Shown here: positions 1,652 to 61,946 of the stretch, in pieces
Layout: each line of letters begins with the position of its first letter
How positions within the stretch are numbered: position 1 is the stretch's first letter
Source of the DNA: Chiloscyllium plagiosum
Taxonomy: Eukaryota
DNA length: 64,000 bases
Assembly (NCBI RefSeq): GCF_004010195.1
Contig: NC_057756.1
Coordinates: 653,805 to 717,804, forward strand
Reading direction: 5' to 3'
The notes under the pieces: model-generated
What the model was told of the DNA's origin: nothing
The model's database searches: none
The model's input: the letters and a program-made list of their open reading frames with translations, nothing else
Made by a program: the position numbers and the translations under genes

Positions 1652-1687
1652 AGCTGAATGATTGCAAAAAATTATTGAATGGTTTAG
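1652..1687 (+). CDS. 36-nt microexon, type A: (E)LNDCKKLLNGL
   Basis: ttctttcttgacag|AGCTG...TTTAG|gtgaga; phase 1-1; Cys at position 5. Confidence 0.85.
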
Positions 1688-2529
1688 GTGAGAAGGAATT
1701 GTTCTGCTTCTTCAACCTATCGCACTTTTAAAGAGTGATGTGTATTTCAAAGGGCAGGACCATACAATGGCGAAGGTTCATTCGCCCTCACATGATTCAC
1801 ACTGCACGTGCAATACATTTTTTAAAATTGTATCTACATGATTCGACTGCACCATGTGTTACTGGTATAAAAACCCTTAAATTCTTGAAGTATGTCTTAA
1901 AATAAGAGAGGAATGTGGGATGGCATGATACAATTTTTTAAATTTACGACACGTTTGTATCAATGGAACACAGAGATAATGATTCCAATTGTTGTTAGGG
2001 CATAACTAGTGGATGTCAATATGTTGGAAGTTCGTAATTAGATATTATGCAGAGATATATGAGGACATTGTCCTCACTCCAACATATTTAACTAAGTAAC
2101 ACAAATGCATCTAGTGGGAGATTAGGAAAGCTTTATGGAAGAATAAAATGAACAGTTGCAATAATAATATTTGATGTGAGAAGTCTGAAAATGTCTCCAG
2201 GCCATCATAAACACCAGCTCAATATTTGTTTTGTTTTGACACTTTTCCTTTCATCTGTTTCTCAACGCTATAAACTGTATGCCTACTTTGTTACATTCAT
2301 TATCCTGTGAATTACTACCCTCTTAAAATTGAGAAATATCATAACAAGCAAGAAGCATTTTGAAGCAAAGCCATATTAGATTTAGCATCTAATGTATGTG
2401 TAACCAACAGAAACAACATTGTGTGCAATTATTGAGCCATTAGGCATTAGTTTTTTTGGCTGTTGTGATACAGAAAACAGAAAACAACGAGTTTGAATGT
2501 ACATTTACGTTTCAGTTTGCAACATTCTG

Positions 2530-2985
2530 ACTAGGGTCGAACAGCAAGCATCACATCTTGGTGCAGATGCATTCACAACCTATGTCAATGCTTTGGGCGT
2601 GAGAATTGATAGTAATATATTCAATTTTCTGATGTTAGTCCACAGGTGAAAATATGTGTTTTGACATATTTGAAATCGGTGATTTCAAACCGATTCAATG
2701 AATTTGTGTAGTTTCTGAAATAAACAAACATTTGGCGGAGAGAATATAGTGTAGATAATAGTGAGGATCATATATGATTATATGATGTAGGAACACTGAA
2801 TCACTGTCAGGAGGTAATTGTCACTGAAACTTAGAAGTGTTAAGTTTCAAAGTGCCTCAGGTATCCTTATTAATGAGTCATTGCACACTGAAGCTCTGCC
2901 AAAATGAACACGAAGAATGCATATTATATGCTGTAAAGAGAGGTATTATGTGCCGTTTTGGACACGTTATCTTAGGAAATATACC
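2530..2985 (+). mobile_element. Ancient CR1 RT fragment
   Basis: Degenerate LG..AFTTYVNAL / KF.D motifs with many stops. Confidence 0.45.
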
Positions 2986-3335
2986 TGTGACTTTTGTCAT
3001 GACGGTATAAGGGGTACTATAAGAGAGTTAAAAGCTAGCAATGACTTAGACAGGTGCAGAGTTAGGAACAGGGTAACAATGTAACATTGGTCACAACAGC
3101 AAGCACTTTCTGGGTTGCTATGAGACAAAAAATAATTCAAATTCGACCAATCAAGTTTAAATTATATCCCAAGATACCAAAATTCAATCAAGTTTGAATT
3201 TGATATTATGACAATATTAAGACCAATGAAACGATCCGATACTTTGGGGTGTAAGACCAGGCAAAATTGAACAGTTTGGGGAGAACTGCCAAAGACCAAC
3301 AAATGTAGGCTGCTAGTAAAACAACTCTGAGTTTG

Positions 3336-3458
3336 ATTAGATTAGATTAGATTAGATTACTTACAATGTGGAAACAGACCCTTCGGCCCAATAAGTCCAC
3401 ACCGCCCCGCCAAAGCGCAACCCACCCATACCCTACATGTACCCCTTACCTAACACTA
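3336..3458 (-). mobile_element. HE1 SINE 3' tail
   Basis: (GATTA)n tail followed by GTGGAAACAGACCCTTCGGCCC...AAGTCCACACC. Confidence 0.8.
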
Positions 3459-5600
3459 CCTGTTTGGAGAAGGAGTTGAACTGAACACAATATTCCGAGT
3501 GTAGTCTAACCAGGGTTTTATAGAGTTGCAGCTTAACCTCGCGGCTCTTACACTCAGTCCCCCATTAATAAATGTCAAAACACCACATGCCTTCTGAACA
3601 ACCCTATGATCTTGGCTGGCAACTTTGAGGGATCTATTTAGGTGGACCACGATATCCCGCTTTTACTCCACACTGCCAGGAATCCTGTGTTAACTCTGTA
3701 ATGAGCCTTCAAGTTCGACCTTCCAAAATGAATCACTTCCAATTTATCCAGGTTTAAATCTTATGTCTCTTCTCAGTCCAGCTCTCCATCTTGCCAATGT
3801 CTTGTTGTAGCCTGCAACAGCCCTCGACACTATCTACAACTGACCTTTGTATCATCGGCAAACTTATTCTTCTACTTCCTAATCCGAGTCACTTATAATC
3901 ATTTGTAAGAACTACAAAGAGCATAGGATCAAGAATACATACCTACTGGACACCATTAGTCACTGAACTCCAGGTGGAATACTTTCCATATACTATCACT
4001 CACTGTCTTCTTTCAGCCAGCTAATTCTGTATTTAGACAGTCAAATTTCCCTGTATCCCATTCCTCCTAACATGCTGAATGAGCCGACTATGGGGAACGG
4101 TATCAAATGCCTTACTGAAATCTATATACACCACATTCACTGCTCGACCTTCATCACCTTGTCTCGTCACATCCTAAAAGAACTCTATAAGACTTGTGAG
4201 GCATGAACTGCCCTCACAAAGCCACACTGACTATCTTTAATCAAATGATGTTTTTCCAAATAGTCATAAACCCTATCTCTCTGAATCCTTTCCAATACCT
4301 TGCTTGCAACAGACATAAGACTGACTGGTCTGGAATATCCACGGATTTCTCTACACACTTTCTGAACAGAGAAACCAACATTTGACTCCCTCCAATCATC
4401 CGGTACCATTCCCATGCAGAGTGAGGATGCAAAGTTCATCACCCGAGGCAAAGCAATCTAATTTCTTGCTTTTCGTAGTAACCTTGAATATATCTCGTCT
4501 GGTCCTGGGGATTTATCTTTCTTGATGCTTCCTAGAATTTCCACCACATCCACTTCCTTAATATCAATCTGTTCACGCGTTATATCCTTTTCCATGGTGT
4601 TCTCAATATCAACAAGGTCCCATTCTTTAGTGAATAGTGAAGACAAAAAAAAAACTCATTTGCGGCCTGTGCTACCTCTTCAGACTATAGTCACAAATTC
4701 CCTCTACTACGCCTGATCGATCCTACCTTCTCTCTGATCATTCTCTTACGCCTCACTTAAATGTAGAACGCCTTTGGGTTTTCCCTAATCCTTCACACCA
4801 AGGCTTGTTCGTGCCCCTTCCTAGCTCGCTTCAGTCCATTTTTGAGTTATTCCTAGCTACCGTGTAATCCTCCAAAGCTGTACCAGATCCTTGCCTCCTC
4901 AATTTTAAGTAAGTTTCCTTTTTTGTTTTGACGATAAACTCGTCTTCTCTTGTCATCCAAGGCTTCTTCACCTTAACATTTTTTTGCCTGTCTCAGTGGG
5001 ACAAAGTTATCCAACACTCACAACAAGTGCTCCTTAAACAACCTCCAGATTTCCGTTGTGCATTGTCCGTAGAAATATTGTCCCCAATTTACACTCCACA
5101 ACTCCTGTCTAATAGCAGTTTCATGTGCCCTCCCACAAATACTTTCCCGTACTGTCTGGTCCTATCCCTCTCCATGGCTATGATAAAAGTGAGGCAGTTA
5201 TGGACCCTGTCACTAGAATGCTCTCCCACTAAGAAATCTGACACCTGACCTGGCTGGTTGCCTCGCATCAAATTTAATATGTCCTCCCCCCAAGTCGGCC
5301 TATCTACAAGTTGAATTAGGAATCCTTCCTGAACACATCTGACAAAATCGGCTTCATCCAGACCATCTGGACGAAGCAAGTTCCAATCAATATTGGGGAA
5401 GTTGAAGTTACCTATAACAACAATTCTGCTACATCTGCACCTTTCCAAGATCTGTTCTCCAATCTGTTCTTCCATCTCTCTGCTGCTATTGGAGGGTATT
5501 TAGAAAACAATCAATAAACTGATTGCTGCATTCCTGTCACTGACTTCCACCCATACTCTCTCAGTAGACAAACTGTCTTCGACAGCCTCCCTTTCTGCAG
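3459..5600 (-). mobile_element. CR1-clade LINE ORF2 remnant (endonuclease C-terminal part plus RT)
   Basis: Peptides GNFNFPNIDW, DKSPGPDEIYSRLL, VPDDWRESNV, RPVSLMSVASKVLE, QCGFV; frameshifted. Confidence 0.9.
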
Positions 5601-7389: not shown

Positions 7390-7410
7390 AAGATATCACT
7401 AAAAATGATG
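7390..7410 (+). CDS. 21-nt microexon, short type B: EDITKND
   Basis: tgttttattttacag|AAGAT...TGATG|gtatgt; phase 1-1; sits in the B slot between two type A exons. Confidence 0.7.
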
Positions 7411-12608: not shown

Positions 12609-12644
12609 AACTGGCGAAATGCAAAGAATCATTGAAAAAATTAC
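12609..12644 (+). CDS. 36-nt microexon, type A: ELAKCKESLKKL
   Basis: ttttctcaccatattacag|AACTG...ATTAC|gtaagg. Confidence 0.88.
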
Positions 12645-15410: not shown

Positions 15411-15437
15411 AAGAGGAACTTATTGAAAAAGGCAATG
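15411..15437 (+). CDS. 27-nt microexon, type B: QEELIEKGN
   Basis: ttatgttttcacag|AAGAG...CAATG|gtaaac. Confidence 0.82.
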
Positions 15438-20093: not shown

Positions 20094-20129
20094 AACTGTC
20101 CAGGTGCAACAACTCCTTAGAAGATTTCG
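20094..20129 (+). CDS. 36-nt microexon, type A: ELSRCNNSLEDF
   Basis: tttcttatattcattag|AACTG...TTTCG|gtgaga; contains an N-N-S sequon. Confidence 0.88.
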
Positions 20130-21197: not shown

Positions 21198-21224
21198 AGA
21201 AAAAGCTGAATGCAAAAGAGAGTG
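21198..21224 (+). CDS. 27-nt microexon, type B: EKKLNAKES
   Basis: ccgtccacag|AGAAA...GAGTG|gtaagg. Confidence 0.85.
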
Positions 21225-24193: not shown

Positions 24194-24229
24194 AGCTAAA
24201 TAAATGCAACGAGTCTTTGAAAGAATGTG
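24194..24229 (+). CDS. 36-nt microexon, type A: ELNKCNESLKEC
   Basis: ctattttatgccag|AGCTA...ATGTG|gtaaga; contains an N-E-S sequon. Confidence 0.88.
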
Positions 24230-27812: not shown

Positions 27813-30041
27813 ATTGCATTATGTCCAGTGAAATGTTTGTAAGAGAAATTAGAGCCTGCGATGTCTGGGGTCTCTTTAAGCACTGAATACATGTAGACTC
27901 TCGCCATTTGAGCGTTGTTTGTTCAAGCACTTGCATTTATCAATAGTAATCTTATAGGAGTTAAATAGACGATTGAAAAGTTAAATGTTATAAACAGAAT
28001 TCACAAAGAACCAAAAAAGTTCTATGTAAAGTAATAGAAGTTGCCCTTGATTTATTTGATGTTGTCAATATTCTGATAAATACTCCAGTTCGGTTTTTAC
28101 ATTTCCTATTGGCATTTGCTGATTGAATGCTACTGTCCAAACTTCTTTCAAAAGTTCACACAGTCGTCCAAGTTTATCTGATAAAGTCGACACTAATTAC
28201 AAAATATTTCCTCCCGTACAGCTCAGAAACTGAAAGAAGCAGGTAAAGCAGATGTGGACAAAAAGAAGCCACATTCCTAAAAAATTCCTATGATATGCTG
28301 ACTTTAGCGAAATTTTCTAAGATTGTCTGATACTTTCCAGAGCTAAACTAATATTGGCCTCTCCTGTGTTTTATGTTGTCATGGAAATCTCTGTATTATT
28401 CGTTATTTGAACTGAGTTCCCCGGGAAATGCATGGGAGAAGAAAAACATAACATGACTTTTACCACCTTCACCTGAAATATTTGAATCTCCACTAGAATG
28501 ATGCATTGTACCTCAGGTGACAAAAAAGTCGTTTTGATTATGACTCTTCATAATAAAGTAACACTCCATTTTCTATTTACACAGACACGTTTGCTTCTAT
28601 TTTCTCATCATCATCCTCCTACATCAACTGCTTCTCTCATAAATGTCTTCCTTGTCAATTACTTATTTTCTTTTTAAGTCGTTCTACCGACTATGGGTGT
28701 ATCTTGAAACTCTTTGTCAACAATGTTTTATCACGCATTCCTTTTATTGTGACCATCTTGGTGCTCCGCCGTTACCATAATCATCTTGACTTTCAAGCTC
28801 AAAAAATTCAATTACTTGTCTTCTGCCGTCGTTTCTCGTTAGAACTCGATTTTCTGCTTCCCTTCTTTCAGGTGATGATTTGTCCTTTACTCCTGGAACT
28901 CAGTTTCTTATTTCTCTTGTTCCTCCAGAACTTGCTCTGCCATTTATCCTTCCTCATCTCATTTTTCCATTTTTTGCATATTGGATAGATATGTTGCGGC
29001 ATTTAAATTGTGCATTTAAATGCTGAAGCCCTATTCTGACAGTTTCCATGCCAAAACGTTTACTGCTTCGATGTGCTACGGTGCCAATCCTCAAGCAATT
29101 TTCTGAAAACGTTGCGAAGTTGTAACGGAGAAATATCCTTCCTTGTGACTTCATTTTTTATTTATCAAGCTCGAGGATTCAAAGCAACATTATTTTTCGG
29201 ACTTAAAATAGCATGGTCAAATAGGTAAGCCGCCACTGATCATAGTGGATTATTTCACCACAAAGTCAACTCATGGAGTATTGTGAGTGAGCATGCTTAT
29301 GTCATGGTAGGAAGTATTTATTGGTTACTCAGCTCCTGTATAAAACAACCTGCTAATTTTTCAAAGTGAACAGCATGATATTTTGTGAAGTTGTGTGTTG
29401 AGATGATTTGCTTTAAATAACAACATCGCTATTTATGATTTCGGTAAGGAATAAAACCTAAGCATATTTTTCCTCATTGGTTGCACGACAAAACATTACC
29501 TTAAGGGACAGAACAACTGAACAATATTCAGCCACACAAGCACGATCTGTCCATCTATTATAGAAGGATGATCGGCTTTTGGTTTTAACATTTTTTTTCT
29601 CTTCACCTTCTTAACAGGTTGCATGCTTCTCAATGAAAAACTCAGCCAACTCAGCCTTGATTGCTTTTATTGTTCAAGCCTCCATTATCTTAATTCTGGA
29701 AAGCATCCAGCGTATTTGAAAGCTCCCAATGTAATACTTTTACTTAAATAGGGAAAGAGACAAAATAAAAATGACAAATGTAGACGTCTGTTATTAGGAA
29801 GATATCAAATTCGATTTTAAACGTCATACTAGCAGAACACTCATGCATACATAGTTTGATCAGACAGAATCGGAATGTTTTCATAAAGGGAAAAAAATAA
29901 AACAAGCATTAATGATCTATTAGAATTATTTGATGAAGTGATATACATAGTAGATAAAGGACCTTTGGATATAGAAGGCGTCTGATAAGATGCCACAGTT
30001 TAACTACTTGATGTGGTAAAAGCCAATCGTGCAGCATGGAA
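27813..30041 (+). repeat. Local segmental duplication, copy A
   Basis: Colinear with 35296-37296 plus 38871-39430 (roughly 80% identity by eye); lacks about 325 bp found in copy B (about 36449-36773). Confidence 0.9.
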
Positions 30042-32617
30042 CAAATTAGCGTAGATGAAGTATTGACTAGATAATGGAGGAGAGGGAGCTTGGAAATTGG
30101 GGGAGGGCCTTTTGAGTTTGGTAATCTGTAATAAGTGGAGAGCCACAAGAATCAGGTAGGTAAAAACAAGGACTGCAGATGTTGGAAAGCAGAATCTCGA
30201 TTAGAGTGGTGCTGGAAAAGCACAACAGGTCGGACAGCATCCGAGGAGCAGGTAAATCGAAGTTTTGGGCAAAAGCTCTTCATCAGCAACAAATGCCAAG
30301 ATTCAGTCAAGTATCATAACTATTTATATTACATATTAATAACTTGGATAGGGAAAACGACAGTGCTTGACATAAACTAGATTGTACTTGACATAAAATA
30401 GACAAAATGGCAAATGGTGATAAAAATTGGAAGTGCTTGAAAACAGAAAGAGACAAGATATGAAAATGGATAAGCAAATGCCAGATAGAATATGAAGTAA
30501 GGAAATATGAGTCTTCACAATTTGGCAAGAAGGAAACGAAAGGTCTTGCATTTTATTAAAGTGATGAGAGCGAGCAGAGGAAGATACAGAACAGGTGAAT
30601 TTTGGATTACGAGTGCATGAATTTCAATAAAAATCACTTCACTGGGTATTGGATAAGTTAAACGGACTTTTGACTTCATTTCAAGGAAATAGTATATAAA
30701 AATAGGAAGATTAGCTAAATTTGTGCAGGACGCTAATCGTATTATTAATGGTGTATGAGGGTCCTTTCCATTGAAAAAAACAAAGAACATAGACAATTAC
30801 AGCATAGGAACAGGCCCTTCGGCCCTCCAAGCTTGTACCTATCCAGATGCCATATCTAATCCTGTTGCCTATTTTCCAAGAGCTGAATCCCTCTGTTCCC
30901 TGCGCAGATATATCTTAAATGATGCGAAAGTGCCCGCCTCTACCACCTCCACTGGCAACGCATTCCAGACACCCACCATCCTCTGCATAAAGAACTTTCT
31001 GTGCAAATTTCCCTGAACCTTTTCCCCATCACCTTGAACTTGTGATCGCTCGTAATTGAATAACCATTTTTAAATTGGCTCCTAACTCATCAATTCTGGT
31101 TGTGGGACCACTTACCTTTTATTACTTATATTATTGATGACTGTATGCACCACAATAGCTGACTGTTCACCCTCCACTTTCAGAACATCCTGCAGTCGGT
31201 CTGAAATATCCCTGACCCGTGCACCTGTCAGGCAACATACCATTTGGTTGCCTTGTTTTACACCAAAGAACTGCCTATCTACTCCCCTTACAACTGAATC
31301 TCCGATTACTATAACACTTCCACTCTTTTTCCCTCCCTTCTGTACAATGAAGACAGCCACGATGTCATGAAGTTGGCTACTGTGCTCTCCTAGTGAACCA
31401 TCTCCCTCAGCAGTATCCAAAATGGTGCACCTGTTTTGGAGGGAGATGACTACAGTGGACACATACACTGACTTCTTGCTCTTTCTCTGCCTCTTGGTCA
31501 CCCATTCACTTTCTCCATCAGCAAGCCTAATTTGCTGTGTGACCAATTCATGAAACGTGCTATCATCTACCTTCTCAGCATCGTAGATGCTCCAAAGTGA
31601 CTCCATCTGCAGCTCCAAGCCATTATATGGTCTAACAATAGCTTCAGCTGGACACACGTATTGCACATGAAGGAGACAGGGACATCAGCCACGTCTCTGA
31701 TCTCCCACATTGAGCAAGACGAGCATAACACGGAATTGGGATCTCCTGCCATTTTTACTCTTAAGCTTAACTTAGACAACTATAATATCAAATAATAAGT
31801 TTTTTAAACGGATCACATTACTTATCGGCACGTGATTTAAAAAAAAAGGGAAAGAGGAACTTTACCTTATCAACACATCAGAGTCTTTACTTTTATTAGA
31901 GAATGAGGGCGGTTAGGAGACACTACCCGTGTAGTATTCTGTGTTTAGCCAAATGTAGCAGGTCCCTCATCTTCCCAGAGCGCAATTCGACCGCTCCCAC
32001 TCAGCTCCTAGCTCTGGCCACTCCCACTGCTGCTGCAAAATGGCAGCTGCTGATTCCATGAGACAAGTATTTAAATGGTAAACTGACCTTCCCAGCAGCC
32101 CTCTGGTCATAGCCCTCACAGCTCCCGCTGGCGTTGAGAAATGGAGGCTACTGGTGTTGGAGGCAATCCAGAAAATGTTCATTAGTCTGACACTAGATAC
32201 GAAGGTTATATAAGTTGCTTATGTATTCTTGACGTTTAGCAGAATGAGAGCAAATTTTATTAAGGCATGCCTGACTCTTAAGGGCAGGGCAGGGCAGATG
32301 TTTCCTTGTATGGAAAATTCGAGCGGCAAAGCACACAATCTTAGAATAAAATGTCACATTTAGAAGAGCAGAGGAGGTTATTTTCTCAGCAGCTTGTAAA
32401 CCTCTGGAATTTCTTATTGCAAAAGACTACTGACGCTGTGTAACCAATTATGTTCAGCATTGATTAGAAGTTTTTGAAAATGAATGAGTATTTATTGTGA
32501 GAAAAAACAGGCAAGTGGACTTGGCCATTATTAAAAAAAAAAGCACACTGTGCCTGAATGGTGGAGCAGCGTTTGTGGACAGAAAGGTCGACTTCAGCTC
32601 CTATATATGATGGCCTC
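29690..32617 (+). mobile_element. Ancient CR1 RT and 3' end, interrupted by a Penelope arm (about 30160-30286) and a younger CR1
   Basis: Degenerate RT motifs; 3' UTR GAATGGTGGAGCAG...CAGCTCCTAT. Confidence 0.65.
30779..32133 (-). mobile_element. Internally deleted CR1: 5' UTR plus ORF1 (zinc finger and SGNH esterase) joined to the ORF2 end and 3' tail
   Basis: CSSCSMWE...CNTC, VIVIGDSVVRG, CCLTGARVRD, VVHTVINNI; junction near 31065 to DHKFKVMGKRF and a CTATGTTCT tail; flanks TTGAAAAA / TTGAGAAA. Confidence 0.85.
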
Positions 32618-33199
32618 ATTTTCTCACCAGTGTGAGAACTTCAAATCCTTAAGACGCTTTGAGATGACTTATAACTCCTCAACTGCACATTGGCTGGAGA
32701 CCCCTTTCTTTAACTATGCCAGGGATTCATTATCTCTCCGACTCTAATATCCAAAACAAGTCAGCGGGAAACACAACCTAAGCATTTATCTTTGGTACAC
32801 CCCTAATATTTGAGGAAAAGGTGACGTCACCCTTTTAAACTTGAAAAGTACAAGCACAATTTTAATGAGAAGACAAGCATTGAATATCTTGTAACACCAC
32901 AGATAACTGTTATGAAGATATGGCATGCAAACGTCTTGTTAGTGACGTATATTGACTCAGAATGCATGGGATTCTGGAGGAGTCAATGCACAAAGTGTCT
33001 GTTAAATGCTTGCAGGCAATGGGCTCAGCTGGGCCTCCTGTTGCAGTCAACATGTTCAGTAACTGTAGGTGATAAAACATACTGATATTTTCGCAAAAGG
33101 AATTGTTCGTTTCCAGTTTGTGATGAGTAATTTGCTCATATTTAGGTGTCTTATATCCCTCGTTCTAACAATGGACTTATTTAGAAAAGTGAAATGATT

Positions 33200-35295
33200 C
33201 GGGCAGTAGACAGGAGTTTCAGGGCAAAAGAATCTCTATACTTATTTAAATAAAATAGGTCATTTTCATACAAGAAATAAAGACAAATGTAATAAACAGT
33301 GAAATTGACACTAGCAAGTATACAGAGGACAGTAATTAGATACACTTTTGAATTACAGACAAGCTAAACACAGTTTCAATCACATAAACTTCAATCAGGC
33401 TTCCGATCGTTGGGGTCCCTGCATTGTTATCACACATTTTCTCCTCCCCACCTAACCAGGCTGAAGACTTTGGGGTCATGGGAAGAACACCATTTTGAAA
33501 TACAGCTGACTGTTCCAACTTGCCATACCTGGTACCTCAACGAAGACTTCGGATGGTGTAGGACATCATTGTGAGTTGAGTTCACTGATGCAATAGGACG
33601 CATTTGGATTTGTTGAGTGAATACTTAGGTTTCCTAACTTTCAGGTGGTGTATGCAGTTTATCTCCTGGAGATAGCACTTTGGAACCTCTCTTCTGGAGA
33701 TGGATGTAAGGATGGCTCTCAGGGTGGTAGCTCTGTCTGGTGAGGTCGGGGCCTGCTATTCTACTAATTGTGGATCTTTTAACGTCATGCCACTTTAGTG
33801 CTTGGTATTATGTTATTGGTATTCCCCTTGAGGTCTGTTGGCTTCCTGACAGTTAAGCACATGTCTGAATGTACTTTGATTAAAGGTGACTGTCCTGGTA
33901 TCTCCAAAGGCTCTATGATATCTCAGTTGGGGTAGCCGATGAGCAAAAGTTAGTTTCAGTCTACAGCATTAGTTCTGGTTGATTGTTCATTTCAAGTCGA
34001 GGTGTGAATTGGATTTTTGGGCAGAACAATGGTTCCGAGCAGTTATCTCTGCTCCGGTGTTTCTTTTCAGCACTTAGTCCTGCTGCCTTTTTAATTTTCA
34101 AAGTTTTTAAGAAGTTCAGAGTTTTGAGACAGCATTTTAAATGTTAAGGATGTTGACTCAATCCTACATATCCTCCCTTTGATAATCTAGATCCCCGCAT
34201 ATCATTGTGGGTATCGCCGAGCCCCAAAAACGAACAACCCGAATTATCTAACCCCAACATACACATTTCCTAGCTTGAAAGGCAGAACATTATCCCCTGA
34301 AAAGAAAACATACGGCTGGATTAGGAGAAATCAAACATATAAGTTAGCTGTACATGGTGTACAACTTTAAATACATTTTTCAGTTTGTCCTCATACAGGA
34401 AAACAATGTATATTTCCAAAGGTTCCCCCCAAGATATCAATTTCCACACGGCACCTCTAGCCCATTGTTTCCTCTCTGGGGTTTTGGGATTTTTGGGCTC
34501 GATACCATGCCCTCCAACTGATCCGCCCTTGGTTTAGTGTTGGCTAATGTGTTTGTTATTTATGTTTGTTTGGTTTAGGTCTCCCAAATTCCATCTGTGG
34601 AACATTCGAAGCATCTCCCGGCTTAAGGTTTTGTGCAGTTGCTCTGTCTTCCTTGGGCATCACTGGGGTGAATGACTCTTCATTTTAAACTTTAGTGCAT
34701 GGGAGATCACGGCCTATTGACCCGATTCCCCCACATAAAAATTACACCCTGGTCTCCTGCATGTGACATGGCATCCATCTAGTGAAATGTCCCTCTTACC
34801 ATTTCCCCTACTGTCCCCTACTGTATGGGCTTTCCCATTTCCCCTACTGTTAGCGCAACACAGCAGCAAAAACCTTGACCATCTGACCATGCTTCCCTGG
34901 CGAAACACATTTACATAATCGCCCTTAAGCGATACTCAGGCTTAAATCCAGATTAAAACAATCAAATATCCGACAAAATACATAACCTTTATTCCAAAAA
35001 TCTACAAAAATCATAATGCACTCAAACTATTAAAACGCCATGTGTCTGTGGGTTTCCAGACTATTACCTGGCAGTTCTATGTTTCTTGTGGTGTCTGGTT
35101 TGGATACCGGGTAGTTCTCTTCAGTCCTCCCCGCTTTCTAACTGGTGATACTCCTGTATCTCAAACCATGTGCATCGTCTGGGGCTGCTGTCTTATCTGC
35201 GACCTGTGAAAGTATAGTCATGCCTGGGGTCTCTGGAGAACTTCCTGAGTCACAAACTCCCAAAATAAAGGAGGGCCAACCTGCCCGATGAGGCA
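33200..35295 (-). mobile_element. Decayed LTR element (ERV-like): short internal region, PPT and 3' LTR
   Basis: Minus strand PPT AAAGGGAGGA (34171-34180) followed by TGTAGG from 34168; possible degenerate tRNA-Ser PBS at 35278-35295; left end uncertain. Confidence 0.4.
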
Positions 35296-38200
35296 GTGCA
35301 CAATATGTCTAGTGACACATTCTTAAGTGAAATTAGAGACTGTGTTGTCTGGGTCTCTTTAAGTATCAGGATTTCAGCGTTGTTTTTTTAAGCAATTGTA
35401 TCACTTGATTTGGTTGTCAATAGTAATCTTGTAGTAATTAAATAGTCGACTGAAAAGTTAAGTGTTATAATCGAAATTCACAAAGATCCAAAATAGTTCT
35501 ATGCAAAGTAACAAAAGTTAACATTCATTGTTTTAATGGTTTCTATATTCTGATAAATGCGCCACTTTGGTTTTTACATTTCCCGTTGGTATTTGCTGAT
35601 TGATTGCAACTCTCCAAAATTATTTCAAATGTTCCTCTGATGAAGTCGACGTTCATTAGAAAATATTTCCTCCTCTACAGCTCAGAAACTGAAAGGAGCA
35701 AGTAAAGCAGTTGTGGACAAAATAGAAGCCACATTACTAAAATGCTGGTTTTTTTTCCTTTCTTTGGTATGCTGACTTGAGTGAAATTCCCAGAAACTGT
35801 CTGGAACTTTCCAGACCCAAACTCATATTGGCATCTCATCTGTTTTATGTCGACATAGAAATCTCTGTGATGTTTAGTGTTTGAACTGAGCTCCCTGGGA
35901 GAAGTAACAGAAAACACGATTTTCTACCACCCTCACCCAAAGTAGTTGAAGCTCCACTAGAATGATGCATTGTACCTCAGGACATTGAAGGTGACAAAAA
36001 AGTCGTTTTTATTATGACTCTTCATAATAAAGCAGCGCTTCATTTCCTTTTTTACACACAAACGTTTGCTCTGCTTTCTCATCATCACCTTCCTACGTCA
36101 ATTGCTTCTGTCATAAATGTGTTCCCTGCCATTTCTTTTTCTTTTTAAGTCTTTCTTCCTTCTATGGGTTCATCTTGAAACTCCTTCTCAGCAAAGTTCT
36201 ATCATGCTTTCCATTTATTGTGACTATCTTGGTACTCTACCTTTACCACTATCACCTTGTTTTTAAAGATCAATAATTTCAATGACTTGCCTTATGGCGT
36301 TGTTTCTCATTAGAACTCGATCTCCTGCTTACGTTCGTCCAGTTGGTGATTTGTATTTTTCCTCCTGGATCTCAGATTTTTTCCCTTGTTCCTCCGCAAT
36401 TTGCTCTGCCATTTATCCTTCCTCTTCACATTTTATCATTTCTTGCATTATCAGCAACTGTCCCTCAACTTGTTTCTTGAAAAACATTGCAAATTGTTCA
36501 AAGCTTAATTTCCATAATCCTAGCTCCAAGATTTCGTGAAGCACGTAAAATGAAGATTTGTGCATGCCCCATCAAGCAAATATTTCTCACTGATCTGTCC
36601 ATTATGTCTAGATTACCCGAATAAATGCACGGGACATCAGTTTGAAACTCATCTCAGGGCTTTCTTTTGATGCAATATTATTTTGTATTATTAATGCAAG
36701 AAGTAAAAAAAAAAGCCCCTAGATTCATGATGATTATCGTGTTTATTGAACCCACAAGTTTGCAGACATTGTGGATATTGAACAGATACATTGCAGAATT
36801 GAAAGTTGTGTATTTAAATGCTGAGGCCCTATTTTGAGAAAGTCCGTACCAAAGCTTTTGCTGCTTCGACGTGACAATTTCTGCTGCAGTGCAAATCTTC
36901 AAACAATTTTCGGGAGAAAAGGTTATTGCGAAGTTGTAATAGATAAATTTACTTCCATGTGACTTCATTTTTATTCATCAAGCCTGAGGATTTTTTAGAA
37001 ACAACATTTTTTCACATTTGACATAGCATGATCAAATAGGTAAGCAGCCAATGATCATCGTGGTTCATTTCGCCACTCAGTCAATTCATGGAATGTTGTG
37101 GGCGAACATGGTTATGTCATGGGAAGAAGTAGTTATTGGTCACTCAGCTTCTATATAATTTTTCAAAGTAAACAGCATGATATTTTATCAAGGTGTGCGT
37201 TGAGATGAGTTGATTCACATATCAACATTGTTATTTATGATTTAAGTAAGGAATATAATTTTAGCATATTTTCCAACGTTGGTTGCATGACAATACATGA
37301 CATAGAACATAGAACATAGACAACGGCAGCACAGAACAGGCCGTTTGGCCCACAAAGTTGTGCCAAGGACTATTCCTAATCGATAATAAAATAACCTAAC
37401 CAACACATCGCTCAATGCAATGCTGTCCATGTGCATGTCCAGCAGTCGCTTAAAGGTTCCGAATGCCTCTTTTTCCACCTCCACCGCTGACAATGCATTC
37501 CATGCATTCACAACCCTCTGCGTGAAGAATGTGCCTCTGATGTCTCCTCTATAACTTCCTCCTAATATACCTCTCGTGTCAGTCAATCCTGCCCTGGGGA
37601 AACGTCTCTGGCTATTGAATTTTATCCAAGCCTCTCATTACCTTTATTAACTCGATCAGGTCACCTCTCCTCCTCCTTCTCTCCAGAGAGAAAAGTCCGA
37701 GCTTAGTCAACTTCCCTTCGTAAGACAAGCCCTCCAATCCAGGCAGCATCTTGGTAAACCTTCTTTGCACCCTCTCCAAAGCCTCTGTATCTTTCATTTA
37801 ATAGGGTGACCAGAACTAGGCACAGTATTCCAAGTGTGGTCCGACCAGGGACTTGTAAAGCTGCAGCAAAACATCACGGCTCTTAAACTCGATCCCCCGT
37901 TAATGTAGGCCAAAACACCATATGCTTTCTTAACAACCCTATTCACTTGGGTGGCAACTTTGAGGGATGTATGCACTTGAACACCCAGATCCCTCTGTTC
38001 CTCCACACTGCCAAGATTCCTGTCCTTAATCCTATATTCAGAATTCATGTTCGACCTTGCAAAATGCATCACTTCACATTTATCCAGGTTGAACTCCATC
38101 TACCATTTCTCAGCCCAGCTCTGCATCCTGTCTATTTCGCACTGCAGCCTGCAATAGTCCTCGATACTATCAATGGCACCTCCAACCTTTGTGTCATCTG

Positions 38201-39430
38201 CAAATTTACCATGCCAATCTTCTCATCCAAGTTATTTATGAAAACTACAAAGAGCAGGGGCACAAGAACAGAGCCGTGTGGGACACCACTCAGCAAATAC
38301 CTCCAGGCAGAATACGTTCCATCTACAACGACTCTCTGCCTTCTGTCAGCCAACCAGTTCTGAATCCAGACAGCCAAATCTCTGTGTATCCTATACCTCC
38401 TGACTTTATGCGTGTGCGTACCATGGGGAACATTATCTGGGTTTATGCTGAAGCCCATATACACCACATGCACTGCTAGACCTTCATCGACCTGTCTTGT
38501 CACCTTCTCAAAGAGCTCAATAAGATTTATGAGACACGATCTGCCCCGCACAAAGCCATGCTGACTGCCTTTATAAACACTCTATGCTTTTCCAAATAGT
38601 CATAATCCCTATCCCTCAGAATTCTTTCCAAAACCTTGCTGACCACATACGTAAGACTGACTGGTTTGTAATTACCAGGGATTTTCCTATTCCCCTTCTT
38701 GAAAAGAGGAACAACATTTGCCTTCTTCTAATCCTCTGGTATGACTCCCTTGGAGAGTGAGGAAGCACAGATCTTTGCCAGTGGCTTAGCAACCTCCTTT
38801 CTCGCTTCCCAGACCAACCTAGGACACATCTGGTCTGGCTCTGGGGACGTATCAATCTTAGTATTTGCCAAACATTATGGCTTTAAGAGACAGAACAACT
38901 GAACAATGTTCAGTCACCCAAGTACAATCTGTCCATCAATAATATGATGATGATCAGCTTTCGGCCTTAACCCATTTTTTCTCTTCACCTTCTTAATAAA
39001 TAATATACCTCTCAATGGAAACCTCAGCCAACTCAGCCTTGAATGCTTTTATTGTCAAACCTACATCATCTGAGTTATGGAAAAGATTCAATGTACTTGA
39101 AAGCTTCTTTAACACTTTTATTTAAAAAGGGAAAGAGACAAAATAAAAATGACAAACGTAGATCAGTTCACTTAACCTCTGTTATTGGTGAGATATCAGA
39201 TTCGACTTTACACGTTATAATAGCGGAATACTCATGCATACATATTTTTGATCAGACAGAATCGGAATGTTTTCATGCAGGAAAAATCAAACGTTAATGA
39301 TTTATTAGAATGCTTTGCTGAAGTCATATATATATATAGTATATAAAGGACCTTTGGATATAGAAGACGTCTGATAAGGTTCTACATTGAATCTACTTGT
39401 TGTGGTAAAAGCCAGTTGTGCTGCATGGAA
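35296..39430 (+). repeat. Local segmental duplication, copy B, split by a CR1 insertion
   Basis: Copy A reads GACAAAACATTACCTTAAGGGACAG contiguously; in copy B it is split into GACAATACAT (about 37290) and AACATTATGGCTTTAAGAGACAG (about 38871). Confidence 0.9.
37297..38870 (-). mobile_element. 5'-truncated CR1 LINE (RT C-terminal half and 3' tail)
   Basis: RGRSCLINLIELFE, SGVPHGSVL, MEFNLDKCEVMHF, LERVQRRFTKMLPGL; (TTCTATG)n tail. Confidence 0.95.
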
Positions 39431-42712: not shown

Positions 42713-42733
42713 ATGAGAAGGAGAAGGGCAAAG
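42713..42733 (+). CDS. 21-nt microexon, short type B: DEKEKGK
   Basis: attttcttcctcaaaag|ATGAG...CAAAG|gtgggt; phase 1-1; lies just before the type A exon at 43689. Confidence 0.65.
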
Positions 42734-43688: not shown

Positions 43689-43724
43689 ACTTACTCGATT
43701 GTCAAAAATCCTTAAAAGATTTAG
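43689..43724 (+). CDS. 36-nt microexon, type A: DLLDCQKSLKDL
   Basis: ttttcttataaatttcag|ACTTA...TTTAG|gtaagt. Confidence 0.88.
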
Positions 43725-44408: not shown

Positions 44409-44435
44409 AAGATAAACTGAAAAAGAAAGAGGCGG
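44409..44435 (+). CDS. 27-nt microexon, type B: EDKLKKKEA
   Basis: ttctgttctcatctgcag|AAGAT...GGCGG|gtaatt. Confidence 0.85.
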
Positions 44436-45864: not shown

Positions 45865-45900
45865 AATTGGAATCATGTCAAGAAAATGTAGAAGAACGTG
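45865..45900 (+). CDS. 36-nt microexon, type A: ELESCQENVEER
   Basis: ttgtttgtatttcag|AATTG...ACGTG|gtaagt. Confidence 0.88.
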
Positions 45901-50240: not shown

Positions 50241-50249
50241 TAGAATCTG

Positions 50250-53295: not shown

Positions 53296-53322
53296 AGGAT
53301 AAATTGAAAGCAAAAGAGAAAG
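53296..53322 (+). CDS. 27-nt microexon, type B: EDKLKAKEK
   Basis: ttttgtttcttatag|AGGAT...GAAAG|gtaaac. Confidence 0.88.
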
Positions 53323-53573: not shown

Positions 53574-54735
53574 TGAAATGAAGACATTAATCCTTAGAAT
53601 TCAGCTGCTTTTACTGAGCAAAGGCATGCAGTTGTAAAATGTTGATAGACATTTAATTACACCTTGAATATTATGGCGGTATGTGAATGCTGCCTTGTTC
53701 GTGTGAAGATGATTGAAAATTAACGAGATTACTCTTTCTACAACTTTGATTTTTGGGCAGTATGTGTCAGGTTGCTTCGCAGTATTAATAGAAATTTACT
53801 TATTTTTCAGAGAGACAAAAAAAGAGAAGCATTAGGCTGCAACTGATTTAGAAGATTCAATATTGATTTTAACTTAGGAAAGTCAATTTAATGGAAGGCA
53901 TCTTCTTCCATTCAAAGGTGGCATGAACAAAATTGGATGTGAGTGTAGGCCAAAAGGGAATTTTATCAATGAAGTCAATGGTGTAGGATACCTCAGTGCA
54001 AGGATTTTAGGTTGTGAAATTCTAGACCAGGACTATTTGGTTTGAATTCTACCAATTATTTTAATTCTGAGAAAGTATAGGCACTTACATCAGTTAGTAA
54101 CCCATGGAAAATTCTTCACAATTTCTGGTACTAATACTAAAATGAAATATAAAGTAAATCTACAAATTTTATAGGGAATGCAATTTCTTTCGAATTGTAA
54201 TTAACTTTAAAGTAATTTTATTGGGGAGTAGACAGAACTTTGTTTTGTTGTATGTATTGAATTTTCTAAGCTAGCTTATATTTATGCAACTTCGTTTGGT
54301 TTGTTTCAGTTCTATTGATATTGCGTAGAAGAGATTCACTTTCTGTAAACAAAAACACCTGTCACCTTGTATGCTTCCACCTCAGTGAATGATGGCTACG
54401 TTTAAGGACAAAACAATATATTCTGTCACGTCAGCTCTCATTCTACAAGATTGATTTACCAATCATAATAACAGCTGGGATCATAATACGAGGAAGCATC
54501 TAATGTGAAAAAAATGCCAGTATTCGCTCGATAATGTATCATCAGATGACATAAAGTCAGTGGTGACTGGCTGAGCATTTCCTTTCTGTCCGATATATTG
54601 TGTCTCTGAAAAATCAACTGTTATCTTAAAAAATTAGCACACTAGCTTCGAAAATAATTATGAAATGTTCTTAAATTTGTTTTCAATCTAACTGCATATT
54701 TCAGTAGTAGTATAATATTCCATTCTTTTCTTTAG

Positions 54736-54771
54736 AAATTATTAAATGCATAGAATCTTTGAAAGCCACAG
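54736..54771 (+). CDS. 36-nt microexon, type A: EIIKCIESLKAT
   Basis: cattcttttctttag|AAATT...CACAG|gtaagg. Confidence 0.88.
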
Positions 54772-54896
54772 GTAAGGAAAGTAATTGATGATAAACTAAT
54801 TTTCCATTATCTGCATTCAGAAAATATTTAAGGGTGACAGAAACAATGAAAATATAGAATGTGATTGCAAGTGTATTCTATTTCTGTATTACATCT

Positions 54897-56551: not shown

Positions 56552-56714
56552 TTTTAGTGTTATTTAATGCTATCAGTTTCTTATCGTAAGGCTTATAGCG
56601 AGTACATTTGATTTCCATTTTACTTGTTGCAGTTATTTTTCTGAAATGTAAAGAATCCTGCATTTGTTTAATCTACATTCGAGACAGCAGCTGCAATTAA
56701 GTGAAATGTGCCAC

Positions 56715-58170: not shown

Positions 58171-58683
58171 TATACCCACCATGGATGTTCCTCTTTGAAA
58201 AATACATTAACAAAGCTCCATGCATAGACAGGCAAAAAGTGTCACTCCCACGTCTTTTTAAACATATATAGGTTTGTCTAGAACATTGCATTTCAATTCT
58301 GATAGTGACATTTCATATGCAGAAGAAAATGATTATCCAGTATATAATGTGCACAATTACACATTCTTAGACACAAAATATGAAAACTTTAAAAACAGTG
58401 TTGTTTGATTAGTTACATTTTGTGTTATCAGAGTTTGAAAATTATTCTCAATGCCTAGTCAAAAACGAATGGTCTACTTTACAATTTCAACACTGATTCA
58501 CAATGTGTCATTTTTGTGAGGCACGACCTAGTATTCAGTTGCTGGGCAAGCTGACGAATTCATTGAGAAGAAAAATCTCAAAACGTTTGCCCCCAAGACA
58601 CATAATCACTCACTATTTAAAAACACACACACTTATTGGAAGGACTGATTCGTTTTTACTCATAATTATGTTTTGTTTTACAG

Positions 58684-58710
58684 AAGAAAAGCTGAAAGCA
58701 AAAATTAAAG
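58684..58710 (+). CDS. 27-nt microexon, type B: EEKLKAKIK
   Basis: tgttttgttttacag|AAGAA...TAAAG|gtaaat; also visible at the end of ORF 58503..58718. Confidence 0.88.
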
Positions 58711-60459
58711 GTAAATAATTTTACAATACATTACAGATGAATATAGATGCGGCTTAAATGAACTGGCTGCTGGATTGGCTTTTCTCTTTTCACATTTTCC
58801 ATTAACAATGGTAGGTTACTTTAAATATAATCGGGAAAAGTAAAAGTAATCCTCAAGAAAAGCACTTTGTTGGAAACCAGTTTCACCTTGTGATTTCTGG
58901 CCTAACATCCAGTGTGGATTCTTCAACAAGCGTTGCTAATAATAGCCAATATTATCATTGCTATTTGGCTAAACATCTGTTAGAGATCGAACGTAACCAT
59001 TCCCTTTAACTTAATGATGAGTGGAATTTAAAACTGTGTTTAACTTGTAATAGAATTTCTCATGTATATGCTGCACTCTGAAAGTTCATAAAGCATTTTA
59101 AGACAATTTTATGTAAACATGAATGAAGTTACGCATTAATCTTAGCAGAGTTAGACGAGAGAAGTTTGATATGTTCTGCCGTGTTTTATTTCTCTTGGTT
59201 TTGATGGTCAAATATTCCATTCAAAGCTGAATAAAGGTTGCCCTTTGTGGACACAATGAAAGAGAAAACCCTTCCTGATCAATCAGGATGAATCAACCAC
59301 AAATAAATGCTTTTGAAAAGTTTTAACCTATTGGCTTCACCACAAAAGAAGAGTGCAAACTCGTAGAGAGTGTTATTAAGCAATACTTGTTCGAATTTGT
59401 TGCATTTCCTGACGTACATTATGCTTATATGGCGGGTAGAGATTTTTAAAAAGCCCTCTGACAACTAGTCTACACTGTATTCTTGTGAGACATATGATAA
59501 AAACTAGCATCTAAAGTTGTCGTATTTCTATGTAATTCCTTTCATTCTCACAGAGCTGGTCATATGGCTATTTATGCTATCATCTGACTGATTTCATTTG
59601 ATATCAAGTCCAACTCAAACCAAATGCACACCAGAACTTTCAGTACTGGTTCGAATTAAAATGACTACCTCATAGTTCTGAATGCTGATTCCAGATTTTG
59701 GAAAATCAGCTTAAAACTTTCTTTGACATTTTAATGTATTTCATTCCTCATTTATCTAAATCCACACTCCTTTAATTAAAAATAACATATCATTTATCTA
59801 TGCCTTAAGTATTACTTCATATGATTATATTATAAATTACCTCGATTACGTTTTATTCTTGAACAAATATGTTTGTTGATTTTTTTGCTTTTCTTCGTGT
59901 TTTGATGGAATAATTAAAGGAAAGAAAGACTCACTACTGAAGGTCACAAAAGTAGCAGTTATTGCTGTAGAAAAGGGATTAATAAATCGAGTCAGAATTG
60001 TGTGAAAAACGGGTTTACCAAGAATGCAGAGAAATTTCAAAAACATTTCTAACAAAGAACTAATTCATGCTTATGATAGACTGTTTTTTTACAACATGTG
60101 ATGGTGTGCATATGGTAAAGGAAAAATTGGTAGGGAAAAACGAGAGGTATCCTCTTTGGTACTTCGCTTGAACAACTAAATGGAGCTTCACAACAGATTG
60201 AATACCTTTGCCTGGATGGTCTTCCTTTTCCGATTTGCATGTGCCATGCAATTCAACCAACTCGGTATTTGCATAAGAGAAAATGTATGAAGCCAATTTG
60301 AACTGAAACGATTTCCTAGATTTGCAATATCACATCTTACGTCTTTGATTGTACCATGAACACTGTAACCCTGAGTGAACAATCAGTATATCATTAAGGG
60401 GAAGATGGAAATGAAAAAAACCCGCAGCAACTTTAACACTGTGTTGTTCTCATTTATAG

Positions 60460-60495
60460 AGTTAAGCGGACATGAAGATAGTTTGGAAGAATTAG
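60460..60495 (+). CDS. 36-nt microexon, type A: ELSGHEDSLEEL (His in place of Cys)
   Basis: ttgttctcatttatag|AGTTA...ATTAG|gtttga (weaker donor); also visible in ORF 60375..60605. Confidence 0.8.
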
Positions 60496-60529
60496 GTTTG
60501 AAAAATATTTGCTTTCTATGCATACTTCA

Positions 60530-61410
60530 TGTCTACCTGCGACTCCACTTTCAAAGAGCTATGAACCTGCACTCCAAGGTCTCTTTGTTCAGCATCACTC
60601 CCTAGGACCTTACCATTAAGTGTATAAGTCCTGCTAAGATTTGCTTTTCCGAAATGCACCTCGCATATCTGAATTAAACTCTATGTGCCACTCCTCATCC
60701 CATTGGGCCATCTGATCAAGATCCCATTGTCATCTGAAGTAACCTTCTTCGCTGGCCACGACACTTCCAATTTTGGTGTCATCTGCAAACTTACTAACTA
60801 TATCTGTTATGCCGAAATCCAAATCATGTATGTAAATGATGAAAAGTAGTGGACCCATAATGGATCCTTTTGGGACACCACTGGTCACAGGCCTCCAGTC
60901 GGAAAAACAACCCTCCACCAGCACCCTCTGTCTTCTATCTTTGAGCCAGTTCTGTACCCAAATGGCTAGTTCTCCCGGTATTCCATGCGACCTAATCTTG
61001 CTAGCCATGGGGAACCTTGTTCAACGCCTTACTGATGTTCATATATATCACGTCCACCAGTCTTCCCTCATCAATCCTCTTTGTTACTTATTCAAAAAAC
61101 TCAATCAAGTTTGTGAGACATGATTTCCCACCCGCAAAGCCATGTTGACAATCCCTACGCAGTATTTGTCTTTCCAAACATATGTACATCCTGTCCCTCA
61201 GAATTCCCTCCAGCATCCTATCCACCACTGACGTCAGCTCACTGCTCTATAGTTCCCGGGCTTGTCCTTACCACCCTTCTTAAACAGTGGCACCACGTTA
61301 GACAACCTCCAGTCTTGCAGCACCACACATGAGTCTATCGATGATACAAATATCTCGGCAAACACCCCAACAATCACTTCCATGGCTTCCAACAGCGTTC
61401 TAGGTTGTGG
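60530..61410 (-). mobile_element. CR1 RT fragment, close relative of the 54897-56551 copy
   Basis: SGVPKGSIMGPLLF, KFADDTKIG; near-identical blocks in inverted orientation. Confidence 0.93.
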
Positions 61411-61721
61411 GGATTAATCGATTCTTTTTCACGTCGTGTAGTTTGGTCAGTCACAATGGGTCTGGAAGAATCACTTTCATTAGCCTTTAAAATAAGAAGC
61501 AGTTAGGGCGGAAGTTAATTTCTTAACATATTTTGAGAAGATCTTATCTGGTCCATAATGCAACTTATTTATTGATTAGAAGGGACTCATTCGTTTTTAA
61601 TGCTGAGCATGATAACACATGTTTTGTATTGCACTACTCGTCCTTTTTTCTCCAATGTTTCATACGTTCACTCATTCTGTCCCTTAATGTGTTGTTTACA
61701 TCAACAATGCAGGTGTGTACG

Positions 61722-61780
<59 letters not shown>

Positions 61781-61792
61781 CAACACACACAC
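61722..61792. repeat. Compound microsatellite (TA)n(CA)n
   Basis: Directly visible, about 130 nt upstream of the 61920 exon. Confidence 0.98.
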
Positions 61793-61919
61793 ATTCTGGC
61801 ATTCCAATTGCTTACCTCTAATGAATATTTTAAAACTAAACACATTTGTTTTACTTAAGTTTTTTGCTAATTTAATTAGTTTATTCTGATTTCATCATCA
61901 ATGATTTGAACTTTAACAG

Positions 61920-61946
61920 AGGAACAACTGAAAGGAAAAGATAAAG
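61920..61946 (+). CDS. 27-nt microexon, type B: EEQLKGKDK
   Basis: gaactttaacag|AGGAA...TAAAG|gtattt. Confidence 0.85.

Follow-up and report, generated by a model that had tools for sequence, protein, structure and literature searches.

A microexon ladder in Chiloscyllium plagiosum is probably an internal slice of a gene encoding a long coiled-coil rod with a terminal B30.2 domain

The stretch of DNA analyzed here (the window) is 64,000 nucleotides (nt) of the plus strand of Chiloscyllium plagiosum contig NC_057756.1 (C47), positions C47:653,805-717,804. It carries 16 very short exons, which are more than a chance pattern. In our opinion, the window is probably an internal slice of a single plus-strand gene of about 490 kb, in which a long run of phase 1-1 microexons encodes a coiled-coil rod and the last exon encodes a B30.2 domain. 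A first-pass annotation of the window had proposed one plus-strand gene for a heptad-periodic coiled coil; that reading is supported by the stop-free joining of the exons, by their recovery with profiles trained elsewhere and by their composition. It had confined the feature to window positions 1652..61946, which proved too narrow, since the proposed plus-strand gene spans at least C47:505,137-995,039. A homologue of the gene was already known as an automatic gene model in Callorhinchus, and the design principle is shared with the chicken BG genes; what is new is the two-exon module of 36 + 27 nt, the scale, and the B30.2 ending in a protein family that lacks Ig, RING and B-box domains.

Results

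Evidence that the microexons are not a chance pattern

A mechanical scan for open-frame AG-N-GT segments recovers all 16 plus-strand exons that the first-pass annotation listed in the window, each preceded by AG, followed by GT and of phase 1-1: eight of 36 nt, six of 27 nt and two of 21 nt. Spliced together in silico, they make up 492 nt that are free of stops in the phase-1 frame, as the first-pass annotation had it, compared with 20 and 16 stops in the other two frames. In most of the exons, the AG follows a pyrimidine-rich tract and the donor is of the GTRAG type. The splice dinucleotides by themselves are no proof, however, because open segments of the bare form AG-N(21/27/36)-GT abound on either strand of the window (425 on the plus and 366 on the minus strand).

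More stringent controls separate the strands. Nhmmer profiles whose training exons (23 of 36 nt, 29 of 27 nt) all came from beyond the window recovered seven of the eight 36-nt and all six 27-nt window exons at E<=1, i.e., 13 of 14, with no minus-strand match in the window. In 20 dinucleotide shuffles of the window, the 36-nt profile gave six matches at E<=1 and the 27-nt profile none, and no shuffle match reached E<=0.01. The comparison with shuffled and minus-strand sequence, named by the first-pass annotation as capable of refuting the ladder, thus came out in its favor. Analogously, a splice-plus-composition score trained on 42 seed exons (threshold 18) returned 64 plus-strand and no minus-strand candidates at a score of at least 20, and 27 of the 64 were not seeds. 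When a 32-base pattern covering the 27-nt exon and its splice sites was searched across the genome with up to 3 mismatches allowed, it had 15 matches and its reversed control 1; of the 15, 12 fall on the plus strand of C47. Two other IUPAC exon patterns were swamped by background, with 179 matches vs. 152 for the control in one case and 171 vs. 210 (a repeat family) in the other.

Scoring of 314 kb (the window with 150 kb upstream and 100 kb downstream) showed the ladder to be present throughout. Over this distance, 70 candidate microexons were found on the plus and 2 on the minus strand (score of at least 18, overlaps removed); 35 of the 70 are 27 nt, 30 are 36 nt, 4 are 21 nt and 1 is 15 nt long. 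The 71-exon set used below consists of these 70 together with the window exon at 20094, which scores below the threshold.

Coding constraint, junction rule and coiled-coil register

Within the set, mean pairwise identity at codon positions 1, 2 and 3 is 0.48, 0.65 and 0.38 for the 31 exons of 36 nt and 0.51, 0.56 and 0.40 for the 35 exons of 27 nt, and the proportion of synonymous differences (pS) is saturated, at 0.71 and 0.69, respectively, with a nonsynonymous proportion (pN) of 0.47 and 0.50; all of these values are inflated, as open frame and composition were among the criteria by which the exons had been chosen. The nhmmer cross-validation is the only test that does not carry this selection bias. 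The intron flanks have an identity of 0.28-0.31, compared with a random expectation of 0.26.

The junctions follow a simple rule: G is the last base in 67 of the 71 exons, and AA, AG or AT are the first two in 60 of them. As a result, the codon split between two exons is almost always Glu or Asp, and any exon can be paired with any other without loss of frame.

The 720 residues encoded by the 71 exons are 20% Glu, 20% Lys and 16% Leu, with 0.1% Pro, and are almost devoid of Pro and Gly. A 36-nt and a 27-nt exon together specify 21 residues, i.e., three heptads, in which L2, C5, L9, L12 and L16 fall on a or d positions of a single uninterrupted heptad register; in six of the eight window units, five of the six core places are hydrophobic. 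Cys occupies residue 5 in 19 of the 31 exons of 36 nt and residue 7 in six 27-nt exons far upstream, both of which are d positions. A 21-nt exon adds a single heptad, and the pairing of a 36-nt with a 21-nt exon (19 residues) shifts the register. Taken together, the richness in Glu, Lys and Leu, the scarcity of Pro and Gly and the heptad periodicity are read as those of a long α-helical coiled-coil rod. Judged by sequence, the exons have the appearance of genuine coding exons belonging to a single plus-strand gene for a heptad-periodic coiled coil, and the rod probably exceeds 1000 residues in all. With an α-helical rise of about 0.15 nm for each residue of a coil, the 720 residues would form a rod of about 105 nm, and the whole rod might measure perhaps 150 nm or more.

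Extent of the gene and its terminal B30.2 exon

Beyond the 314 kb, further matches to the ladder exon patterns occur at C47:819,438, 855,021 and 963,168, and ladder-type exons persist at C47:962.9-971 kb and at 980-994 kb, as far as the acceptor of a B30.2 exon. This phase-1 PRY/SPRY (B30.2) exon, located at C47:994,519-995,039 on the plus strand, runs to a stop codon and is probably the terminal exon of the gene to which the window belongs; the suggestion of the first-pass annotation that neighboring DNA be searched for a B30.2 exon was therefore well placed. About 2.2 kb at approximately C47:968.0-970.3 kb read as N, inside what the flanking frames suggest to be a long interspersed nuclear element (LINE)-type element.

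A genome-wide SPRY search gave a match at 4.578 Mb on the plus strand of C47, the only one on C47 among the matches listed. With that exon as the query, the nearest paralogue is C47:994,509-995,036 (+), at 60% identity (E 8e-71). It was the only B30.2 of the subtype downstream of the window ladder, 23 kb past the last 27-nt ladder exon then seen. Both plus-strand B30.2 exons have a strong acceptor (TTTTGCAG) and the phase 1 that the ladder requires. Their Pfam SPRY scores are 60.9 bits (the exon of the window gene) and 65.9 bits, with a cut-off of 26.3; the PRY model gave no match to the B30.2 exon at E<=0.01. The closest solved structures are the B30.2 domains of BTN3A1 (E 3e-22), TRIM58, pyrin and TRIM21.

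A 36-nt linker exon (peptide HSDWRDVKRNK) lies at C47:993,701, 0.8 kb before the B30.2 exon. Just upstream of that exon is a tandem array, C47:989,767-993,458, made up of four or more 1.0-1.2-kb units with 78-85% identity; a 21-nt exon is present in three of them (989,820, 990,819 and 991,984), in an almost identical acceptor context.

Searches for other parts of a gene within the ladder were negative. Among 330 plus-strand open reading frames (ORFs) of at least 70 amino acids (aa) in 264 kb, no globular domain was found at Pfam cut-offs; the only domains above the cut-offs were those of transposons (reverse transcriptase, RNase H and a SCAN fragment). A scan of the 314 kb for membrane-spanning exons gave five raw matches from three sites, none convincing by eye, and the same 314 kb contained no stop-bearing terminal exon. 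No Rfam family matched the window at the gathering threshold.

The locus is not unique in the genome. A second ladder of 36- and 27-nt exons, at C47:4,337,759-4,358,471 (+), lies about 220 kb upstream of the B30.2 exon 4,577,499-4,578,019. A third B30.2 of the subtype is located at C47:1,296,638-1,297,162 (-), and two more occur on C37, at 22.23 and 20.72 Mb (-). Judging from these sequences, the ladder and B30.2 copies appear to make a small gene family in Chiloscyllium plagiosum. As a separate observation, C37 at about 9-34 Mb holds most of the 150 SPRY, 150 B-box and 79 Ig matches listed and resembles a TRIM/butyrophilin super-cluster.

The exons of the window

All window exons are on the plus strand, and their inner peptides are given below with the 36-nt type denoted A and the 27-nt type B. 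In the first part of the window, A exon 1652..1687 (LNDCKKLLNGL) scores 29.0 and is matched by the out-of-window profile at E 7.6e-4; it is followed by a 21-nt exon, 7390..7410 (DITKND; score 24.1), by A exon 12609..12644 (LAKCKESLKKL; out-of-window profile E 4.7e-6) and by B exon 15411..15437 (EELIEKGN; out-of-window profile E 0.014). A exon 20094..20129 (LSRCNNSLEDF; profile E 0.018) has a weaker acceptor, TTAG, and falls below the score threshold of 18, and B exon 21198..21224 (KKLNAKES) scores 18.1 with a profile E of 0.18. A exon 24194..24229 (LNKCNESLKEC) combines a profile E of 9.8e-7 with an exact match to a genome-wide exon pattern, and the second 21-nt exon, 28222..28242 (QKLKEA), scores 26.0.

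The second half opens with A exon 43689..43724 (LLDCQKSLKDL; profile E 1.2e-5) and B exon 44409..44435 (DKLKKKEA), which was both scored and recovered by the profile. These are followed by A exon 45865..45900 (LESCQENVEER; profile E 1.5e-4), B exon 53296..53322 (DKLKAKEK; a profile match and, with one mismatch, a genome pattern match), A exon 54736..54771 (IIKCIESLKAT; profile E 1.6e-3) and B exon 58684..58710 (EKLKAKIK; score 34.6, a profile match and an exact pattern match). A exon 60460..60495 (LSGHEDSLEEL) scores 19.0 and has a weak donor, GTTTGA; the out-of-window profile missed it, and a profile that includes the exon itself matches it at E 3.9e-3. The last is B exon 61920..61946 (EQLKGKDK), matched by both the profile and the genome pattern. 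Exons 43689, 44409 and 60460 lie in single-copy contigs of a DNA run (depth 13-18) and are therefore not parts of repeats. The Cys consensus proposed for type A is present in seven of the eight 36-nt exons of the window; exon 60460 departs from it, having His instead.

Two additional 21-nt candidates were found. The one at 35681..35701 (QKLKGA; score 18.3) is a copy of 28222-28242 (repeat family D7, 87% identity) in which AG and GT are kept; the other, at 42713..42733 (EKEKGK), scores 22.0, above the best minus-strand candidate (18.9). With A for 36-nt, B for 27-nt and b for 21-nt exons, the order in the window becomes A b A B A B A b b b A B A B A B A B. The unbroken alternation described by the first-pass annotation thus holds for the 16 exons that it listed and fails once these two are counted, so that its perfection partly reflects which exons were listed.

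The copied exon belongs to a segmental tandem duplication at 27937..39430 (+), in which 11 repeat families recur in register at a spacing of 7.46-9.39 kb: approximately 27.9-30.0 kb of the window was copied to 35.4-39.4 kb at 80-89% identity, and one 21-nt exon was duplicated. Growth of the ladder by repeated duplication of a two-exon unit, as had been supposed, is not what the recent events display; in both this duplication and the array before the B30.2 exon, the copied unit holds just one exon, of 21 nt, and the divergence of older introns is too great for their history to be followed.

As for the rest of the window, high-copy repeats lie at 46,255-47,556, 50,161-53,415, 54,718-57,321 and 59,926-62,500, where summed contig depth reaches thousands to millions vs. 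8-19 for unique DNA. Fragments of reverse transcriptase and RNase H occur at 55,241-55,480 and 41,098-41,346. An intronic run of about 20 G is found at 11,513-11,548 and an intronic (AC)26 microsatellite at 61,743-61,793.

Relatives in cartilaginous fishes

The ladder is invisible to ORF scanning, as the first-pass annotation had stated, and its expectation that annotation would miss the gene is borne out in a congener. The Chiloscyllium punctatum "hypothetical protein chiPu_0007878", 178 aa long and 98% identical, contains the terminal B30.2 exon alone.

Relatives of the B30.2 domain were sought among 1.84 billion representatives. The best single-stretch relatives, at 36-51% identity, are chondrichthyan in every case whose source was looked up. 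Several combine a coil with B30.2: Leucoraja "TRIM69-like" (XP_055510696.1, 295 aa), Scyliorhinus "TRIM39-like" (XP_038668997.1), Callorhinchus "TRIM58" isoforms (XP_042191566-8, 218-230 aa) and Narcine "zinc-binding protein A33-like" isoforms (XP_069775384-90, 353-378 aa). The coils of these short models comprise only 50-200 residues. The Narcine and Callorhinchus isoforms differ by cassettes of 6, 7 and 9 residues, as skipped microexons would give; isoforms from the NCBI pipeline rest on transcript data. The Leucoraja linker ASDWDTIKNNK resembles the peptide of the exon at 993,701. No RING, B-box or Ig domain was found in the sequences of the close relatives, for which precomputed Pfam gives SPRY only. 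The first ~110 residues of the Scyliorhinus canicula protein XP_038668997.1 look retroelement-derived by eye, and it is probably a mis-joined model of the same family.

The long form of the family is Callorhinchus milii XP_042192744.1, a 1697-aa model named "nuclear-pore anchor-like", of which an older, 1722-aa version was named "myosin-2 heavy chain-like". The first-pass annotation had recognized no described gene of this kind; this automatic model is a homologue. The protein begins with a 15-residue hydrophobic stretch followed by RAKRRKK. Its coil of about 1450 residues contains 11 [ED][LIVM]xxC motifs, some of them 21, 42 or 84 residues apart, and it shares the B30.2 subtype, with 41% identity in the aligned part; both proteins end in ISIV.

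Spliced products were compared with 169 collected proteins and with 200 composition-matched shuffles of the Callorhinchus coil. The 71-exon product matches the coil of XP_042192744.1 at E 9.5e-12, with 28% identity over 449 residues, the best of the shuffles reaching 0.74; for the 16-exon product, the two Callorhinchus models are the best matches, at E 1e-6 and 3e-5. Among proteins of 933-2970 aa, these two versions were the only long models found with the Callorhinchus coil. The short N-terminal hydrophobic segment, which is seen in XP_042192744.1 and in one further family model, was not found in a script scan of 350 kb. No published description of the gene family or of XP_042192744.1 was found in the open-access literature searched.

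By sequence comparison, then, the gene appears to belong to a chondrichthyan coiled-coil-plus-B30.2 family without RING, B-box or Ig domains, with XP_042192744.1 as its long form. As far as the searches reach, the matches suggest restriction to cartilaginous fishes; lineage specificity, which had been proposed, is thus retained at that level and lost for anything narrower.

Discussion

Comparison with known systems

The closest parallel in exon design is found in the chicken BG genes. These genes have 27-37 exons, nearly all of 21 nt and with codons split 1+2, encoding a coiled-coil tail of variable length; exon number differs between genes and alleles, each exon carries whole heptads, and a two-chain coiled coil is presumed (PMC5938342, PMC4046983). 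Butyrophilins carry a few heptad exons (PMC12841164). A run of phase 1-1 microexons encoding heptad-periodic sequence is also present here, and the B30.2 ending is shared with butyrophilins. In contrast, the BG exons are mostly one-heptad units of 21 nt in compact genes, placed behind IgV and transmembrane exons and without B30.2, whereas the gene discussed here uses a 36 + 27-nt module (three heptads per two exons), would have on the order of 100 exons over about 0.5 Mb and ends in B30.2. Accordingly, a 21-nt unit of the BG and butyrophilin kind does not describe the window, where eight 36-nt and six 27-nt exons stand beside only two to four of 21 nt.

TRIM proteins likewise have a coiled coil followed by a B30.2 domain in one exon, and the relatives are named TRIM39-like, TRIM58, TRIM69-like and A33-like. 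TRIM coils are about 100 residues long and encoded by few ordinary exons. A difference from TRIMs is suggested by the RING and B-box, which are absent from the sequences of the close relatives; on C47, no B-box was present among the 150 of 312 candidates scored. Shuffling of B30.2 exons between families is documented (PMC2657112).

XP_042192744.1 shares the long Glu-, Lys- and Leu-rich coil with E-L-x-x-C units and the C-terminal B30.2 of the same subtype. It differs in having a less regular coil with a smaller number of Cys units, and the model is an automatic one, named from coiled-coil resemblance. The short chondrichthyan models share the B30.2 subtype but differ in the length of their coils.

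Weighing of the explanations

Beside the inflation of the codon-position, pS and pN values, several observations weigh against a single, expressed gene of the kind proposed here. Only the two pattern matches at 819,438 and 855,021 represent 142 kb of unread DNA (C47:817.8-960 kb), over which the continuity of the ladder, and thereby the single gene, is inferred. The order of A and B exons is irregular outside the window. The Callorhinchus coil shows only low similarity (28-33%), and compositional bias affects both sequences. Residues 1-397 of XP_042192744.1 have no match in the Chiloscyllium plagiosum genome, and the 5' end of the gene is beyond the DNA read. Finally, over window positions 43000-62500, RNA reads mapped only to high-copy repeats, without exon-exon joints; the runs used (two of single-cell poly(A) RNA, a contig run presumed to be RNA and a DNA run) are uninformative on expression.

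Some of these points would also fit a locus with more than one gene, in which a short gene at 994.5 kb, made of a first exon, some microexons and B30.2, stands apart from one or more coiled-coil genes without B30.2, represented by the window ladder. Coiled-coil-plus-B30.2 models of 218-378 aa do exist in skate, ray and chimaera, the 142 kb lie outside the DNA read, and the exon types shift along the locus, the Cys being carried by 27-nt exons before window coordinate -26,000 and by 36-nt exons after it. We nevertheless regard such a division as unlikely. The 36 kb before the B30.2 exon (2.2 kb of them N) contain no candidate for a hydrophobic first exon with a phase-1 donor; the 314 kb of ladder contain no stop-bearing terminal exon, convincing membrane-span exon or domain ORF; ladder-type exons continue up to the B30.2 acceptor; and the long Callorhinchus model joins such a coil to the same B30.2 subtype. 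The ladder could otherwise encode the cytoplasmic tail of a butyrophilin- or BG-type membrane protein, with IgV (and possibly IgC) and transmembrane exons upstream of 505 kb. Split-codon heptad microexons of the same kind in BG and butyrophilin genes (PMC5938342, PMC4046983) are in line with this, as are the position of BTN3A1 as the closest solved B30.2 and the presence of Callorhinchus BTN1A1 among the distant matches, at 37%. We hold this to be quite improbable, as the nearest B30.2 relatives have no Ig domain and no butyrophilin-like Ig exon lies within 7.5 Mb of the locus: the IgV-IgC of Callorhinchus BTN1A1 has 79 exon matches in the genome (all 120 candidates scored), of which most fall in a stretch of C37 rich in butyrophilin and TRIM sequences and others on further contigs, those on C47 being confined to 8.59-8.97 Mb.

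It is also very improbable, in our judgment, that the ladder is a relic of decaying copies that are no longer or rarely spliced, with few 3' exons in use. The lack of exon joints among the RNA reads, the irregular order outside the window and weak signals such as the TTAG acceptor of exon 20094 and the GTTTGA donor of exon 60460 might be taken in this sense. However, while the introns have diverged to near-random identity, the 71 candidates keep AG, GT, an open frame, the terminal G and the initial A[AGT], where neutral decay should have broken many exons, and the minus strand yields at most two comparable candidates (0-2). To the neck of a type II C-type lectin, or to chance, we assign a negligible probability. 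The stalk of CD23, with its 21-residue repeats, each in its own exon, offered a precedent for a neck of this repeat length, and C-type lectin exons were among those that the first-pass annotation proposed to look for nearby; none of the 43 Lectin_C matches in the genome is on C47, and the 3' exon encodes B30.2, by which a CD23-like neck is ruled out as far as these searches reach. Chance is ruled out by the genome-wide pattern, the strand difference in score and the nhmmer cross-validation.

A possible mechanism and its significance

Under the preferred reading of one gene with a microexon-encoded rod and a B30.2 end, every phase 1-1 exon with G|A junctions would be a neutral cassette, and a duplication of a few kb would add heptads harmlessly; the pairing of 36- with 27-nt exons would keep the register (21 = 3 x 7). 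Local addition of heptads is visible in two duplications, that of the 21-nt exon in the window and the array at 989,767-993,458. Exon number, through local tandem duplication and perhaps through cassette skipping, would then set the length of the rod. The rod may dimerize or oligomerize into two or more strands, holding the B30.2 head far from an N-terminal hydrophobic anchor, and an innate-immune or tethering role, as in other B30.2 proteins, would be conceivable. B30.2 domains bind specific ligands in TRIM5, TRIM21, pyrin and BTN3A1. If the N-terminus of the Callorhinchus protein, which by eye looks like a P450-like signal anchor, acts as one, the rod and head would be cytosolic and the d-position Cys would be small core residues. 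Alternatively, were it a signal peptide that is cleaved off, interchain disulfides between the Cys would be possible at intervals of about 3 nm.

More tentatively, and at less than even probability, these proteins may constitute a distinct chondrichthyan class of B30.2 proteins, neither TRIM nor butyrophilin: a membrane-anchored rod bearing a ligand-binding B30.2 head at its end and serving as a splice-tunable ruler or tether for innate sensing. In Chiloscyllium plagiosum, the rod would have expanded to about 100 exons and more than 1000 residues (about 150 nm or more), with three or more paralogues.

For annotation, the locus carries a warning. In one species the gene has been reduced to a 178-aa "hypothetical protein", and automatic names (nuclear-pore anchor-like, myosin-like, TRIM39-like, TRIM58) conceal the family elsewhere.

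If transcribed as read, the gene would be among the most extreme exon-tiled genes of vertebrates, with about 100 exons of 21-36 nt spread over about 0.5 Mb and occupying less than 1% of the locus. Under the phase 1-1, G|A rule, a coiled coil can grow by local duplication with frame and heptad register unbroken. The arrangement joins the many-heptad-exon design of chicken BG to a B30.2 end like that of butyrophilins and TRIMs, in the most ancient surviving lineage of jawed vertebrates, and thus bears on the origin of the B30.2 immune families.

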